Origin: Escherichia phage vB_EcoM_G8
Length of the DNA stretch: 64,000 nucleotides
Sequence record: NC_054915.1
Reading direction: 5' to 3' (one strand)
The notes below the pieces were generated by a model. The model was not told where the DNA came from. It did not search any database and saw only the letters and a list, made by a program, of their open reading frames with translations. Below, piece by piece: positions 25,796-33,087 of this stretch. The position numbers and the translations under genes are program-made. The first letter of the stretch is position 1. The number at the start of each line of letters is the position of its first letter.

Positions 25796-27844
25796 TTATC
25801 CTTGAACGAACTTGTAAGGCATGTTTGCAATATCTATGCAAGACGCAATAATTCCAAGAGATGATTCTACTTTCTGTTTAACATTTGATGAAACAAATGA
25901 TGCAAAGTCAACTCTATCTTCTATATCACCTGTCATTGTAACCAATTCACCAGTTTCCATTAAACGGTCACCGTCATAAATTACCGATTCGGTGAGTTCT
26001 TCTGTGGTCATAACTTCAGCTTGAATAAGCTTGTTGTTAGTTCTAACTGTTCCATCGTTGTAAGATGCATCGGTTATTTTATTAACTTTGACCATTAATC
26101 CACGTGGCAAAATGACTTCCATTTCATTTGAAGGCGCTAAACTTCCACCGGGTAAAACAACATTGACCTTATCAGCCCCAGTAATAACCCATCCAATTCC
26201 AACTAAATTATCACTAGAATTTACAAGTCCTTCATCAGTTTTATCAATAGAAACACTTAAACGCTTTTCGTCTGGTAAAACACCCACAGATGAATCAGTC
26301 ATCCAAGTACCAAAAATATTTGGATATAATGATGTTGACACAAAGTTTCTAAAATAAAAAACTCGATTTTTTACCATTGCTTCATATATTGAAGGTAACA
26401 TTCGTTGTGAACGATACAAAGTAATACCTTTTGGTAATCGTTCACCATTTTTAAAGGCTGAATCTAAATTATCAATGGCTTGTTCTATTTCAGGTGCTGT
26501 TAAAATACTTGTACGCTCATCTGGATTATATAATCCCAAAAGAGCATTATTCATGTCTACATATCCTGAACCTACATATTCACGAATTCCGCGTTTTTGC
26601 GCTGGTGTGTATTTAGATGAATCTTTATTTTCGACTATAGGATGTAATGACCATCCAGCGGTAAGAGCATATCCACGTAATTCTCTTCGAATAATCTTTG
26701 TTTTTATTGCATTCCAAGAATTTTGTACTAACTCATTTGCAGCATCTTGGTTTAAATGCGAATGTCTGTTAATATTTCTTTCAAACCAAGCACCTTTATA
26801 TTTTTCTAAAGTATCATCAACTATAGAAGCAATAGTTTCTAAAGTTTTTATTGAAGTAATAGATTCTTTTCGTAATCTTTCTAAAGCTTTATTTTTTATT
26901 TCTGCATTAATAATGGATTCTTTATCTTCAGGAATTATAGAAGCTTCTCTGAATGCCATTCCAGCTGTAACACTACTAAGAGCATTCTCTAATGCAAATC
27001 CTGAAGTAGAAATAACAGTTAATTCATTAGCGTCAGAAATTAAAGGAGCGTCCGCTGGTTTATTTAATTCTGCCGCTGAAGCCTCAAATTTTTGAAACAT
27101 CGGTGTTTCAAATCTAGAAGATTCCAATGACTGACTTTGTGCAATTGCTCTACGGGAAATTTTAACTTTAACGATTACAGCTTGGTCAGAACGTTTATCA
27201 TTTTCTTGTGCAATAGATGCTGCAATTGCCTCATTTTTAGTTACTTGAGCTCCAGTATCTTTATTGATATAAACATCACCGACCTTCGATTCAACTTTAG
27301 TAAAGAGCTCGGTACTAATTTCCGGAACCCCTGGAATGTCTTCTAGTGATACATTTTTGCGATGTATAAGAATATATGCATACTTTTTATCATAATCCCA
27401 GAGTTCCTTAAGAAGGACGTATCTGCCACCTGAACGACTACGGATAAGTCTATCAGCAATAACTTGAATTTGTCGAGCTTGACCGGCGGTTTTAGACTTA
27501 AGAATACGAAGCATACAAGCATCAATTTTATACTGACGCATTGTTTGCATTGCAACAGTAAAAACCGAATTGATATAATTAATTGGGCTTGGACCAAGAC
27601 CTTTCAATTTAGCAATTGAACCTTTAGCGGTTAATGTAAAAGGAACAATATGCATCATTTTATCGCCCATCTTTAAATCACGATTAGTATCACCTCCAGA
27701 TGTATAGGTACATAAACGAAAGCCTGGTTGTTCAATTGCGTCATCAACATGAACTGAAAAAATTTGCGGTATTTTCTTCTTTGGATTTAAGTTTGTAATC
27801 GGAAGAGTAGTATCTTCGTCAAATAATTCTGTAATTAGTTCCAT
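25796..27844 (-). CDS. alt: ADP-ribosyltransferase Alt (capsid-packaged)
   Basis: Track ORF is 683 aa; second Met gives 682 aa starting MELITELFDE; late promoter TATAAATA upstream. Confidence 0.9.
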   Translation of the reverse strand: MELITELFDEDTTLPITNLNPKKKIPQIFSVHVDDAIEQPGFRLCTYTSGGDTNRDLKMGDKMMHIVPFTLTAKGSIAKLKGLGPSPINYINSVFTVAMQTMRQYKIDACMLRILKSKTAGQARQIQVIADRLIRSRSGGRYVLLKELWDYDKKYAYILIHRKNVSLEDIPGVPEISTELFTKVESKVGDVYINKDTGAQVTKNEAIAASIAQENDKRSDQAVIVKVKISRRAIAQSQSLESSRFETPMFQKFEASAAELNKPADAPLISDANELTVISTSGFALENALSSVTAGMAFREASIIPEDKESIINAEIKNKALERLRKESITSIKTLETIASIVDDTLEKYKGAWFERNINRHSHLNQDAANELVQNSWNAIKTKIIRRELRGYALTAGWSLHPIVENKDSSKYTPAQKRGIREYVGSGYVDMNNALLGLYNPDERTSILTAPEIEQAIDNLDSAFKNGERLPKGITLYRSQRMLPSIYEAMVKNRVFYFRNFVSTSLYPNIFGTWMTDSSVGVLPDEKRLSVSIDKTDEGLVNSSDNLVGIGWVITGADKVNVVLPGGSLAPSNEMEVILPRGLMVKVNKITDASYNDGTVRTNNKLIQAEVMTTEELTESVIYDGDRLMETGELVTMTGDIEDRVDFASFVSSNVKQKVESSLGIIASCIDIANMPYKFVQG

Positions 27845-27867
27845 CATATCCTCTCTAGTGTTTATTC

Positions 27868-27875: not shown

Positions 27876-27880
27876 AAATT

Positions 27881-27898
27881 AAAGGCCCGAAGGCCTTT
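27881..27898 (-). terminator. hairpin at end of 62-aa ORF, before alt late promoter
   Basis: AAAGGCC-CGAA-GGCCTTT. Confidence 0.5.
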
Positions 27899-28085
27899 AG
27901 TAATCTAGTGGTAAGAGAGTACGATATATTTCAAACTTTGGTCCTTTTTCATAGGCATCAAATGTTTCTGTGAATTTATTATAAGCGTATGCATCTACAA
28001 ATTCGAGAATGACTTGTGATACAGAAGTAGAAACATCTCCACCTTCTTTTTGAGCAATGACAATTGTTTCTAAGTAAGCTTTCAT
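27897..28085 (-). CDS. hypothetical 62-aa protein translationally coupled to DNA ligase
   Basis: ATGA overlap with gene 30 stop; N-terminus MKAYLETIVIAQKE. Confidence 0.6.
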   Translation of the reverse strand: MKAYLETIVIAQKEGGDVSTSVSQVILEFVDAYAYNKFTETFDAYEKGPKFEIYRTLLPLDY

Positions 28086-29545
28086 AGACCAGTTACCTCA
28101 TGAAAATCGCCAAATACATCTTCGAACGTATTAGCTTTAGTTTTATCTTCACGTAAACGAATCGCAATCGGAAGAAATAATTTAACGTAATCAGTGCGGC
28201 CATCAGATTTTAACCAACCGTTGCATTCGCACTCTAGAATTTTTCCAATATAATAATTTTGGTTTTCCATAATGCGAGTACGGTCAAGTTCATGCGATTT
28301 TACACCGGCTTTATCTTTTAAGCCTGAACCAGCATTTACCTTAATTTTTCCACACTCTGACTCAAGAATAAATCCACCTGCTTTAGTAGGGTCTTTACGG
28401 TGAGGATAAATTCCTACAATTTTTAAATCAACATCAATTACTTCTTTAAATTTATAGATATTTTTTGAACGAGCATTTTCCCATAATCCATCGATATTTT
28501 TGAGAATAATACCTTCAAGACCTTGGTCAATATACTTTTTATAAATTACCTTAGCTTCATCTAGGTTATTTACTACCTGGTTTTCAATTAAAATTACTTT
28601 ATCATAGCCTGATGTCATTTGTTCTAGTTTAGAAAAACGTACATCATATTTCAAACGAAATGCAGGAAGACCGTATATTTCTACCAACGGGACATAATCC
28701 CAGACCTGAAACTTCATGCATTGAGCTTCTTTTTCAGAAATGGTTCCCTTTAAAGATTTATTGGCGATTCCATTAGAAGTAGTACGTGATTCAGCTACTT
28801 CGGCGAATTCTTTGGCTTTACTAATTTCAGGATAAGCATCAAAAAGAAAATCTAGGCCTTCTGGCTCCTTTTTAACTTGCTCATGGTATACCAATTCGCC
28901 ATCAATTAACACGCCTTCTGGATGAATCTGGCGGGCTTCAGCGGTCATTTTGATTAATTCTTCCTTAAGAAGATCTAATCCTAGATATTCATTACCGGCT
29001 CGTGATAAAAGACGAACATCATCTAATTCATCACCTCTGACTTCGGCAAAGCACCGAGCCCCATCAGCTTTTAACTGGGCAAAGGCTGGAAATTTGATAT
29101 TCTTATTAATGCCTTTTTCATCATAAGAACTTGCAAGCATTTGAGGTTGTTCAGGAATTAAACCTGGCCAAACTTTGTTTGCAATAGATACTGAAGCACC
29201 ACATTCAAGGTCTCGCATCATCACTCGACGCAAAACTTCAACATCATCTTTTTTACCATCGGTGATATATCCAGTTAATTCCTCAATTGCTGCATTTCCA
29301 GTCAATTTCCGAGTAGCTAATGTGAATTCAATGAAGTCAAGCATATCGGTAAGAGTCAACATTCCAAAACTCTGGGTAGCAATACCAGGTTTAGGCCATT
29401 TCTTGATATAATACTGCAACCCACGAGAATAAGTCAGACGATATACTCGTTTAAGCAATTCATTATCTTCATTCTTTTCAAGAATTGCTTGCTTCTGCTT
29501 AGTTGAACCAATAGATGCTATTTCGTTCAGAATTTTAAGAATCAT
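28082..29545 (-). CDS. 30: ATP-dependent DNA ligase gp30
   Basis: 487 aa; adenylation lysine context AQLKADGARC (KxDG). Confidence 0.93.
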   Translation of the reverse strand: MILKILNEIASIGSTKQKQAILEKNEDNELLKRVYRLTYSRGLQYYIKKWPKPGIATQSFGMLTLTDMLDFIEFTLATRKLTGNAAIEELTGYITDGKKDDVEVLRRVMMRDLECGASVSIANKVWPGLIPEQPQMLASSYDEKGINKNIKFPAFAQLKADGARCFAEVRGDELDDVRLLSRAGNEYLGLDLLKEELIKMTAEARQIHPEGVLIDGELVYHEQVKKEPEGLDFLFDAYPEISKAKEFAEVAESRTTSNGIANKSLKGTISEKEAQCMKFQVWDYVPLVEIYGLPAFRLKYDVRFSKLEQMTSGYDKVILIENQVVNNLDEAKVIYKKYIDQGLEGIILKNIDGLWENARSKNIYKFKEVIDVDLKIVGIYPHRKDPTKAGGFILESECGKIKVNAGSGLKDKAGVKSHELDRTRIMENQNYYIGKILECECNGWLKSDGRTDYVKLFLPIAIRLREDKTKANTFEDVFGDFHEVTGL

Positions 29546-29811
29546 TATTCATCCTTCAGAGTTTGGTTTACAGCTCTATTATAAATCAATTCATCATTAA
29601 GCTCAGTCAAAGACTTATGATATGTGGTTCTAACTTTATTTCCTTGCATCCAGTGCTTGATATAAATGAAACCTTGCTCTACACATTTTTTAAAAATTCG
29701 TTCGTCTTTTTGAGCTCGGAATTCTGGATTGCATCTAAAAAATTGATTTACGTGACCGTAATCACGTGTAGTATTACCTTCATTTTCATAAATAGTGTGA
29801 ACAACAAACAT
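29545..29811 (-). CDS. 30.1: hypothetical protein (30.1 position)
   Basis: 88 aa, overlapping stop/start with neighbours. Confidence 0.65.
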   Translation of the reverse strand: MFVVHTIYENEGNTTRDYGHVNQFFRCNPEFRAQKDERIFKKCVEQGFIYIKHWMQGNKVRTTYHKSLTELNDELIYNRAVNQTLKDE

Positions 29812-30659
29812 TAGAATGCTCCTTGGAAAATATTATCACCACTAGTAAGTCTATTAAAATACCCTGCGTCGCCAGGCTTAATATAACTCCACGTATGGAA
29901 TGGATGCATCTGGTGTGAGTGCGTATAATATGGATGATATGGATTATAAGGATTAAATCCAGGAGTTCTCCAGGTAGTGTTCCAGCGAAAAGAATCGTTT
30001 TTAATCATCTTCTCAATTACATCTTTTATAGCTTTTTCACTATCAAAACTTTCTTTATTTTCCTTTGATGGAAAAAGCTTATTCTCTACATCATTCCATG
30101 TATAAACTCGCTGTGCAGTTTTTGGAATACTGTCACGCTCTCCTCGAGCCATCCAATAAACTGGAACATTTAATATTTCACTCGCATGATCGCAGTGGTG
30201 AGCGAGATCGTCAATATAACAAATTACGTTATATTTCTCTTTTGCCTTTTTGAACAACTCTTCTTTTGAAGAATCATGACCACACATCAATACTTCTGAG
30301 AAGGCACCAGGAAAAAGAGCATTCAAATTAAATTGACGATTCAGCAGAGCGTCAATAGAATCACCCAATGCTGTAACAGCTACAAAATTATAATCTTCTT
30401 TTAATTTGTTAATTACACACAGGGCATCTTTATATGGCGACAAGTAACGAATAAAATCTGAACGATTGTATTTTTCAATTAGCTTAACGCCAAGTTCTTC
30501 ATCACAATTAAAAAGTTTACCAGGAGAAATAAATTTCTCATCTTGGATCATTTTTAAAATATGTTCCAATGGAAGATTATATTTCTGAGCAAAATAAGGA
30601 AGGCCTGATTGCCAGCTTAAACATACTCCATCAATATCAGTTAAAATAGTAGGCTTCAT
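29811..30659 (-). CDS. 30.2: HAD-superfamily hydrolase-like protein (30.2 position)
   Basis: 282 aa; N-terminal LTDIDGV matches HAD motif I DxDG; His/Tyr/Pro-rich tail NPYNPYHPYYTHSHQMHPFH. Confidence 0.7.
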   Translation of the reverse strand: MKPTILTDIDGVCLSWQSGLPYFAQKYNLPLEHILKMIQDEKFISPGKLFNCDEELGVKLIEKYNRSDFIRYLSPYKDALCVINKLKEDYNFVAVTALGDSIDALLNRQFNLNALFPGAFSEVLMCGHDSSKEELFKKAKEKYNVICYIDDLAHHCDHASEILNVPVYWMARGERDSIPKTAQRVYTWNDVENKLFPSKENKESFDSEKAIKDVIEKMIKNDSFRWNTTWRTPGFNPYNPYHPYYTHSHQMHPFHTWSYIKPGDAGYFNRLTSGDNIFQGAF

Positions 30660-31114
30660 AGAGAGTCTCTTAATAGGTTTAACACATCAATAAATTCAGC
30701 TTCGGTTAGTATTGTATCATCTTTTGTTAGACCACTAGCCATGCTGTGCTTCAAAACTTTTCCTTTCGAGACTTGTAATGCATCACGAAAGCCCTTGTTT
30801 TGGATCGCTGCTTCAAAATATGCATTTGTGTATAATTCTTTCCACGCCGGGGAGTATCTTGAAAACGGAACTCCGAGCCAGAAGAGGGTCCCACGGTCCT
30901 GAGCTCTTGCATAAGACCTTCCAGCTTGCTGTGCGGCCAATCCAGACAACCCAAATATACGACGTTGTTGTTCAACATTTTTCACCTTGCACTCTTGGAG
31001 GAATCCTTCAAGACCTCCAAATTGAATACCATCCATAACGAAAGGCCATTGGGCGAAATTACTTAATGCGCATGATGGCCATCTAAAACTACTTCTAATC
31101 TCTAACTCAGACAT
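30656..31114 (-). CDS. 30.3: NADAR/YbiA-family protein (30.3 position)
   Basis: ATG 31114 (track ORF starts at TTG 31120); 152 aa; LSNFAQWPFVMDGIQFGGLEGFLQECK resembles E. coli YbiA FSNFAAWPIKVDG…. Confidence 0.7.
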   Translation of the reverse strand: MSELEIRSSFRWPSCALSNFAQWPFVMDGIQFGGLEGFLQECKVKNVEQQRRIFGLSGLAAQQAGRSYARAQDRGTLFWLGVPFSRYSPAWKELYTNAYFEAAIQNKGFRDALQVSKGKVLKHSMASGLTKDDTILTEAEFIDVLNLLRDSL

Positions 31115-31312
31115 TTTCAATACTTATAATTTCAACATCAGCCCAATGACCATAGCAAGGAAGACGAAATTCAACTGGCCAGTTAGGGTCCTTTCTAATA
31201 TAATAGACTCAACTCGTGGTTCTTCATGTTCATCAGTATATGGATTTTTATCTGTTACTTTATATGTGACCTTAATGTACTGAATTCCAAAAATCTTATT
31301 AATTAATTATAT

Positions 31313-31510
31313 TCATACTAATTCCTTTAATCCGTAAATAGGAGATAATTCATCACCCATGCGAAGGTCTTCATTTCCATCTACCCAGGAAACAATATAA
31401 GCCTCTTTTATTTGAATACCACTCCATTTAAATGGAGGTAGAACCTTAGAAATTAATCCAGGTATACCAACTCCCTTTAATTCAACAGTTTGACCTAAAA
31501 AGAATTTCAT
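31313..31510 (-). CDS. hypothetical protein
   Basis: 65 aa ORF in the 30.x small-ORF cluster. Confidence 0.5.
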   Translation of the reverse strand: MKFFLGQTVELKGVGIPGLISKVLPPFKWSGIQIKEAYIVSWVDGNEDLRMGDELSPIYGLKELV

Positions 31511-31797
31511 TAGAACCTCATCTGAAAACCATGCGATTTAACATTACCGCCACCAATATCAGAGATATTAATTTCGCGCGCAATTGAAGGGTCAATGTCA
31601 ATTTCGCGATTGAGTTTAGTGATAGCTAAAGTATCGCGCCCATTTACAGTACGAAACTCTAAAGGACAAACCACATCAACGTAGTTTTTAATCGATTCGC
31701 TAGTAGGTTGCAAATGTGCAGGAAGGTCTTTAGGCGCCTTTGAGAAAACAACTTCACAGAAATTTTTGCGGGTATCAAAATAAGTAGTCATAAACAT
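31510..31797 (-). CDS. hypothetical protein
   Basis: Track ORF 189 aa extends through a hairpin; ATG 31797 after GAGGAAA gives 95 aa (MFMTTYFDTRKNF…). Confidence 0.55.
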   Translation of the reverse strand: MFMTTYFDTRKNFCEVVFSKAPKDLPAHLQPTSESIKNYVDVVCPLEFRTVNGRDTLAITKLNREIDIDPSIAREINISDIGGGNVKSHGFQMRF

Positions 31798-31933
31798 AAC
31801 ATTTTCCTCAATAGGGGCCGAAGCCCTTTTCTTTTGTTTGTATAAGATAATACTATCACAAAGGAACCGTACTGTAAACAACTTTGTGCAATCTTTGGAA
31901 AATAAAAAAAGGACTCCCGAAGGAGTCCTCAAC

Positions 31934-32110
31934 TTATGCTTTCTGCTTACCAAAACGAGAAGCATCATCTCGAAGAACCGCACGTGCTCGGCGCATGATC
32001 TTCTCAACAGTTTGATTGATACGAGAGTTCGACCCACGCTTGTAGCCAGCGCGTTTAGAATCACCAACTTTCTTTTCAACTGATTTCTTTGCTTTAGCTT
32101 GTTTTGCCAT
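31934..32110 (-). CDS. small basic hypothetical protein
   Basis: ATG 32110 gives 58 aa MAKQAKAKKSVEKKVGDSKRAGYKRGS…; Lys/Arg-rich. Confidence 0.5.
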   Translation of the reverse strand: MAKQAKAKKSVEKKVGDSKRAGYKRGSNSRINQTVEKIMRRARAVLRDDASRFGKQKA

Positions 32111-32355: not shown

Positions 32356-32604
32356 TTACTTCAGTGTTACCACAAAGTGACGAACTGCTTTTCGTGCAGC
32401 AGAAGCCAGAGGCTTAGCATACTTAAGTTCATCTTTTTCCTGAAGCTCAGCAGCTAATGCAGTTTGAGCAGGATTTAGATGTTTGAAATAACGCAGGATT
32501 TCAAGAGCTTCGGCTTCAACATCAATAGATGCGCCATAGTTTTCGTGACCATTATTCCATGCGTTTCGTTGCAGTTCAAGAGCGTGTTGTAATTGTTTAA
32601 TCAT
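32356..32604 (-). CDS. rIII: lysis inhibition accessory protein RIII
   Basis: 82 aa ORF immediately downstream of gene 31 in transcription direction, T4 rIII length and position. Confidence 0.75.
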   Translation of the reverse strand: MIKQLQHALELQRNAWNNGHENYGASIDVEAEALEILRYFKHLNPAQTALAAELQEKDELKYAKPLASAARKAVRHFVVTLK

Positions 32605-32751: not shown

Positions 32752-33087
32752 TCACTTATAAAGACACGGAATAGCTTTATAGTGACAGGTAACAAATTTT
32801 TGTTTAATTTCTTTTGGCTGCTTAAGACCCAGAGCTACAAAAGGATGCGGAACGTTTCGAATTTGACCAACTGGAAGAGAAGTCAAATCACCAACTTCAC
32901 AAAAACCTTCAGGAACATCAGGACCGACAGAGTGAATTACACACAGTTCAGGAACTTCACCTTGAACACGTTTACCGATAATAAGTCCTGATTCTGTAAC
33001 TTCTTCATCACCGGCTTGTGCAGGTTCAGAAACTAAAATAACATATTCACCTACAGCACGAATTGGTAGCTGTTGTACTTCAGACAT
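32752..33087 (-). CDS. 31: co-chaperonin gp31 (GroES analogue)
   Basis: 111 aa [39 protein letters not shown]…. Confidence 0.9.

Follow-up and report, generated by a model that had tools for sequence, protein, structure and literature searches.

The 64,000-nucleotide stretch of Escherichia phage vB_EcoM_G8 DNA analysed here (the window) carries the orthologue of bacteriophage T4 gene 30.3, known in T4-like Tequatrovirus as adfN (anti-DarT factor NADAR), and the product very probably acts as an anti-DarT1 enzyme. This analysis establishes orthology, synteny and the NADAR fold, and finds every residue of known importance retained. The function is already known: it was shown by experiment for the T4 orthologue, which falls in the same cluster as the window protein and is named 'Anti-DarT factor NADAR' (NADAR_BPT4) in UniProt.

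The gene starts with ATG and comprises 152 codons followed by a stop; the mechanical open reading frame reaches back to a TTG at position 31120. Its TGA stop overlaps the ATG start of 30.2 in the sequence ATGA. Residues 17–43 read LSNFAQWPFVMDGIQFGGLEGFLQECK, identical to the motif quoted in an earlier note on this DNA, so that the 152-residue frame called there is confirmed, on the minus strand. The product matches PF08010 (Phage_30_3, 'Bacteriophage protein GP30.3') over profile positions 1–138 of 138 (E = 5.3e-69; 230.8 bits against a cut-off of 36 bits), and also PHROG 652 (E = 1.6e-50). It aligns with T4 gp30.3 at equal length and without gaps, with 148 of 152 residues identical (97%). 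The nucleotide differences are mostly silent (15 silent and 4 amino-acid-changing relative to T4; 13 and 3 relative to teqskov). The two family matches, the identity with T4 and the predominance of silent changes among close relatives show that the frame is not a chance one. The exact protein is on record once, as YP_010069497.1 of vB_EcoM_G8. The features of the locus are listed in the table.

Table. Features of adfN and its surroundings in the window
Feature	Position	Strand	Basis
adfN (30.3) CDS	30656..31114	-	PF08010 match and 148/152 identity with T4
NADAR N-terminal motif LSNF..F..DG....E-G-F-L-Q-x-x-K, residues 17–43	30986..31066	-	Conservation and YbiA alignment
Catalytic E36	31007..31009	-	Invariant in the family
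Catalytic K43	30986..30988	-	Present in 64/66 family members
Unusual E41 (codon 41)	30992..30994	-	Family alignment
H123, phage-type NADAR histidine	30746..30748	-	Invariant in 66/66
C-terminal α-helix, residues 138–151	30662..30703	-	Structure model
alt	25796..27847	-	Comparison with T4 NC_000866
Terminator-like hairpin after alt.1, between alt.1 and alt	27880..27899	-	Pattern match only
alt.1	27897..28085	-	Comparison with T4 NC_000866
30 (DNA ligase)	28082..29545	-	Comparison with T4 NC_000866
30.1	29545..29811	-	Comparison with T4 NC_000866
30.2, 282 aa, directly downstream of adfN	29811..30659	-	PHROG 420, no Pfam match
30.4 remnant (disrupted)	31107..31316	-	Comparison with T4 NC_000866
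30.5	31313..31510	-	Comparison with T4 NC_000866
30.6	31510..31797	-	Comparison with T4 NC_000866
Sigma-70/early-type promoter-like site, TTTACA-17-TAGTAT, TG-extended	31850..31878	-	Consensus match and T4 alignment only
Terminator-like hairpin after 30.9	31909..31930	-	Pattern match only
30.9	31934..32110	-	Comparison with T4 NC_000866
rIII	32356..32604	-	Comparison with T4 NC_000866
31	32752..33087	-	Comparison with T4 NC_000866

A megablast search with positions 30000..32000 returns 660 phage records at up to ~97% identity, nearly all of them Tequatrovirus (Escherichia, Shigella, Yersinia). The gene order alt, alt.1, 30, 30.1, 30.2, 30.3 is identical to that of T4, and 30.3 lies, as it does in T-even genomes, between 30.4 and 30.2 and upstream of the ligase gene. 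The earlier note correctly placed the gene in the same region as alt and the ligase, but its distance of two genes from alt is wrong: four genes (30.2, 30.1, 30/ligase, and alt.1) intervene. The hairpin between alt.1 and alt is likely the 3' end of the adfN/ligase unit and would separate this unit from alt. Judging from the sequence, alt and adfN are probably transcribed separately. No evidence was found for a functional tie of adfN to Alt beyond their co-location.

The NADAR assignment is supported through the relatives of the protein and its predicted structure. A Pfam search with the single window sequence matches PF08010 only and does not reach PF08719 (NADAR) at E ≤ 1. PADLOC, including its DarG models, gives no match. 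A single-sequence search against PDB chains was also unproductive, returning one spurious glycosyltransferase match (E = 0.95); YbiA is reached only by a family profile. The 'signature' on which the earlier note had relied is therefore a weak signal at the sequence level, although the assignment drawn from it is correct. One hundred gp30.3 homologues were collected, of which 44 and then 66 were aligned. The profile of this family matches E. coli YbiA (2B3W; E = 0.0033) over exactly the quoted motif. In the alignment with the YbiA motif FSNFA..DG..SEHYFQAQK, E36 corresponds to the motif glutamate and K43 to the motif lysine. Nine of the 66 family members also match PF08719 individually (best E = 1.5e-7).

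An AlphaFold2 model built from the 66-sequence alignment (pLDDT 93.2, pTM 0.88) is predicted to adopt the YbiA fold, with a helical core flanked by small β-sheets. Foldseek searches of the PDB with the model retrieve three solved NADARs: YbiA (2B3W), a P. nicotianae NADAR with ADP-ribose (8BAU), and the G. lovleyi DarG1 NADAR (8BAT), with probabilities of 0.99–1.00 and TMq of 0.58–0.66. YbiA is the best match (E = 1e-4, TMq 0.66), and nothing meaningful follows these three in the PDB, the next probability being 0.02. The same three structures are cited for T4 AdfN in published work (PMC11825919). The membership in the NADAR/YbiA family proposed from the DNA letters thus agrees with the profile match, the nine relatives, and the top three structural matches.

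Six residues are invariant among the 66 aligned members (E36, G37, F38, L39, Q40, and H123), and K43 is found in 64. In the model, H123 directly follows the last β-strand (residues 120–122). Phage NADARs carry a histidine where YbiA-type enzymes have glutamate and DarG1-type enzymes aspartate (PMC11125620, PMC11543638); the equivalence of H123 to these residues is taken from the two papers, not from structural superposition. The C-terminal helix is predicted to be intact in the full-length window protein (block pLDDT 89–97).

The function of the T4 orthologue is documented by several studies. DarTG1 resistance of T-even phages was mapped to gene 30.3, which received the name adfN in 2024–25 (Johannesman et al., Nat Commun 2025, PMC11825919). 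In that work, T4 adfN was sufficient to rescue RB69 on DarTG1, and T4 and T2 phages from which adfN had been deleted no longer formed plaques on DarTG1 hosts. The substitutions E36A and K43A impaired T4 AdfN, and purified T4 AdfN stripped ADP-ribose from DarT1-modified DNA. The RB69 allele is defective: a frameshift leaves the protein 15 residues short, with loss of the C-terminal helix. DarTG2 was not countered. Neither hydroxymethylation nor glucosylation of DNA was required for the effect, and T4 AdfN was fully effective only in T-even infection, pointing to a further phage co-factor (all PMC11825919). Independently, T4 gp30.3 hydrolysed guanine-ADPr in vitro and left thymine-ADPr intact; in uninfected cells it was unable to act as an antitoxin (Toxins 2024, PMC11125620). 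Gene 30.3/adfN is conditionally essential only on DarTG1 hosts, where transposon insertions in it are lost (HIDEN-SEQ, bioRxiv 10.1101/2025.11.20.689424). These experiments bear out the suggestion, made in the earlier note, of a counter-defence role against guanine ADP-ribosylation by DarT-type toxins. A function read from raw sequence alone thus coincides with one established by genetics and biochemistry in 2023–2025, that of a phage 'orphan antitoxin'.

The mechanism proposed for the window protein follows from this work. When a host with DarTG1 is infected, the DarT1 toxin would ADP-ribosylate guanines in the phage DNA and block replication. AdfN, a minimal single-domain NADAR N-glycohydrolase, would be expressed from the ligase-containing (30.x) transcription unit and cut the bond between ADP-ribose and guanine, with the E36/K43 helix and H123 arranged around the distal ribose. 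Replicable DNA would be restored, AdfN serving as an 'orphan antitoxin' that mimics DarG1. The enzyme would be specific for guanine-ADPr, and thymine-ADPr made by DarT2 would not be a substrate. The enzymology and the phage phenotype in this scheme are those published for the T4 protein, which is 97% identical. By analogy, we infer that the window allele, with N9S, G41E, and A115V, is equally active.

The window protein differs from T4 AdfN by four substitutions, N9S, G41E, A115V, and I125M. The first three are private to the window allele and set it apart from its nearest relatives (teqskov, F26, and T4). The protein is a singleton, found on one contig among ~15 billion proteins, and none of 1,509 homologue-bearing phage genomes exceeds 98.0% identity to it. 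An IMG/VR scan with the single protein yielded five loci, too few for allele statistics, and the phage collection was used instead. Position 41 is occupied by serine (51), glycine (11), or alanine (3) in the other 65 aligned members, and by alanine in YbiA. A 33-mer over the E41 codon occurs in none of 50,697 phage records, whereas the control for the T4 allele occurs in 139. In the model, position 41 lies between the catalytic E36 and K43, at the C-terminal end of helix 35–41; by helical geometry it would point ~140 degrees away from the E36/Q40 face. The window protein is a rare natural variant. Its G41E may alter the activity or the substrate range (towards another DarT1 variant or nucleic-acid context), or it may be a second natural loss-of-function allele like that of RB69; we consider such an altered allele unlikely. 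New biology would emerge only if the G41E allele behaves differently.

The surroundings of adfN also depart from those of T4. Genes 30.7 and 30.8 are absent, with a loss of ~780 bp that includes one promoter-like site (T4 L001:7488-8254; junction near 31826/31827). The absence is shared with vB_Eco_F26; most relatives keep both genes. The deletion places the promoter-like site of the window, which aligns with promoter-like sequence upstream of T4 30.8, directly before 30.6, 30.5, the 30.4 remnant, and adfN, fused to the hairpin preceding 30.6. Gene 30.4 itself is disrupted. An insertion of 4 bp after codon 5, duplicating TTAA, turns codon 6 into a TAA stop; further downstream a G-run has lost 1 bp, for a net gain of 3 bp. 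The gene is intact in T4 and F26, where it was read directly, and the disruption is also apparent relative to teqskov. None of 449 phage records covering at least 80% of the 30.4 stretch is at least 99% identical to it, and the best-scoring matches cover 228 bases of the record where the window has 231, the difference expected for records that lack both indels. The indels could mark a true pseudogene or be errors of sequencing. In T4, the end of 30.4 and the start of adfN share 8 nt, and the disruption removes what is likely a translational coupling into adfN. The frameshift, together with the lack of a strong Shine-Dalgarno sequence before the adfN ATG, means that adfN expression could differ in this phage; the absence of 30.7, 30.8, and an intact 30.4 may affect it as well.

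The gene could be an adfN orthologue whose allele is attenuated or poorly expressed, owing to an acidic E41 on the catalytic helix next to K43 and the lost coupling to 30.4, leaving the phage partly or fully DarTG1-sensitive like RB69. The occurrence of E41 in this protein alone among the 66 family members, the 33-mer counts, the singleton status of the protein, and the frameshift of 30.4 only in the window are consistent with this, and RB69 provides a precedent for a naturally defective allele (PMC11825919). However, the gene is not truncated and its product keeps each residue known to be critical, silent changes still dominate relative to teqskov, and position 41 is predicted to face away from E36/Q40. 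A 63%-identical relative lacks 30.4 altogether, so that coupling to 30.4 is not obligatory for adfN. On balance, an attenuated or poorly expressed allele appears quite unlikely, and an active anti-DarT1 enzyme is the preferred reading.

Distant gp30.3 homologues (35–47% identity), on a jumbo-phage contig and in three other contexts, have no conserved neighbours in common with T4 or with each other. The 63%-identical relative carries an additional 136-aa gene between 30.3 and 30.2; in another contig, 30.2 is split. The idea that gp30.2, which is translationally coupled to AdfN, is the T-even factor potentiating it finds no support in this neighbour comparison, though it may still hold within T-evens. 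On the 308-kb jumbo-phage contig, a gp30.3-family NADAR gene (38% identity) lies ~2.6 kb from NUDIX hydrolase and Thg1-like genes on the opposite strand (L002:9115-9879 and L002:10308-11294). This region may be an ADP-ribose/RNA-repair neighbourhood.

A main role on other ADP-ribose conjugates, such as guanine-ADPr in RNA, soluble ADPr-derived immune signals, or the modifications made by Alt, ModA, and ModB, would explain a site in the same region as alt. A 2022 study pointed out that in T4-like phages NADAR and ART genes lie together among the early genes and are co-expressed, and proposed that phage NADARs act mainly on soluble ADPr derivatives (PMC9503650). All NADAR families are also reported to remove guanine-ADPr from RNA in vitro (PMC12945103). 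Against such a role, the genetics of the T4 orthologue give a clean DarTG1-specific phenotype (PMC11825919, HIDEN-SEQ), alt lies four genes off and beyond a terminator-like hairpin, and no ART gene is a conserved neighbour of the distant homologues. In addition, reversal of cytidine-ADPr is tabulated only for NADAR-type and YbiA-type enzymes, not for phage NADARs (PMC12945103). We regard this role as highly improbable. A housekeeping N-glycosidase of the YbiA kind, with riboflavin-pathway intermediates as substrates, deserves almost no credence: YbiA is the best structural match and NCBIfam gives a weak match to TIGR02464 (riboflavin-intermediate N-glycosidase; E = 0.13), but the latter's 12.5 bits are far under the 73.7-bit cut-off, the last-strand glutamate that defines YbiA is replaced by the invariant histidine, and the gene is phage-specific with an anti-DarTG1 function demonstrated in T4 (PMC11825919).

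Homologues of gene 30.3 are present in ~1,500 of 50,697 phage records and are nearly always labelled 'hypothetical protein'; adfN, or anti-DarT factor NADAR, would be a better name. Several other annotations at the locus deserve attention. First, several T4-like GenBank records describe the small genes 30.1, 30.4, and 30.7 as 'putative baseplate hub', 'baseplate hub subunit', or 'baseplate tail tube cap', which look like propagated mis-annotations. Second, the 90%-identity cluster that contains the window protein mixes 152-aa gp30.3 with gp30.2 of 278–284 aa, and its representative has 279 aa. The mixture likely results from ORF calls that were fused or misjoined at the ATGA overlap and could mislead name transfer, for example by placing 'HAD-like hydrolase' onto AdfN. 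Third, gene 30.3', annotated in T4 (DUF2883, PF11097, E = 3e-44), corresponds to a +1-frame ORF inside adfN at 30751..30978 on the minus strand. In a comparison of eight alleles, nearly every substitution within the overlap leaves AdfN unchanged, and nearly every one alters the 30.3' product. Between the window and T4, there are 11 silent and 1 changing for adfN against 0 silent and 12 changing for 30.3'. One IMG/VR allele has lost the ATG of 30.3'. The substitution pattern fits a non-selected frame rather than a real overlapping gene, and PF11097 was probably built on a spurious ORF.

Among known systems, T4 AdfN is the closest to the window protein. The two share their length, the site between 30.4 and 30.2, E36, K43, H123, and the C-terminal helix; they differ in four residues, and in the window 30.4 is frameshifted and 30.7/30.8 are deleted. 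E. coli YbiA (2B3W, PF08719) is the best structural match and shares the SNFA..DG..E..F.Q..K motif, but is only 19% identical, carries the last-strand glutamate, and is a housekeeping riboflavin-intermediate N-glycosidase.

The DarG1 NADARs of E. coli C7 and Geobacter/Trichlorobacter lovleyi (8BAT) share with AdfN the NADAR fold (Foldseek probability 0.99) and the hydrolysis of guanine-N2-ADP-ribose, and AdfN mimics their antitoxin function. However, they are only ~16% identical to the window protein. DarG1 has an N-terminal extension and a catalytic aspartate, whereas the window protein consists of the core domain only and has a histidine. DarG1 is also encoded in an operon with DarT1, whereas adfN of the window is flanked by 30.2 and the 30.4 remnant, with no DarT neighbour. 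Unlike DarG1, T4 AdfN fails to neutralise DarT1 when the cells are not infected (PMC11825919, PMC11125620). The window protein would work like DarG1, yet is not a member of the DarG1 antitoxins.

Other phage factors act against the same defence. AdfN-Bas32 and AdfN-Bas60 (T5-like, Vequintavirinae) reverse the DarT1 modification and rescue phages on DarTG1 like T4 AdfN, but belong to other NADAR clades and were independently acquired (PMC11825919). They also work without infection and serve unrelated phages; the T4-type protein reaches full activity only in T-even infection (PMC11825919). AdfA (gp61.2) and AdfM (Tk.4) of T4 are also T-even anti-DarTG factors (PMC11825919, HIDEN-SEQ). Both are unrelated to AdfN: according to these papers, AdfA does not belong to the NADARs, and AdfM, a macrodomain protein, acts against DarTG2 and its thymine-ADPr.
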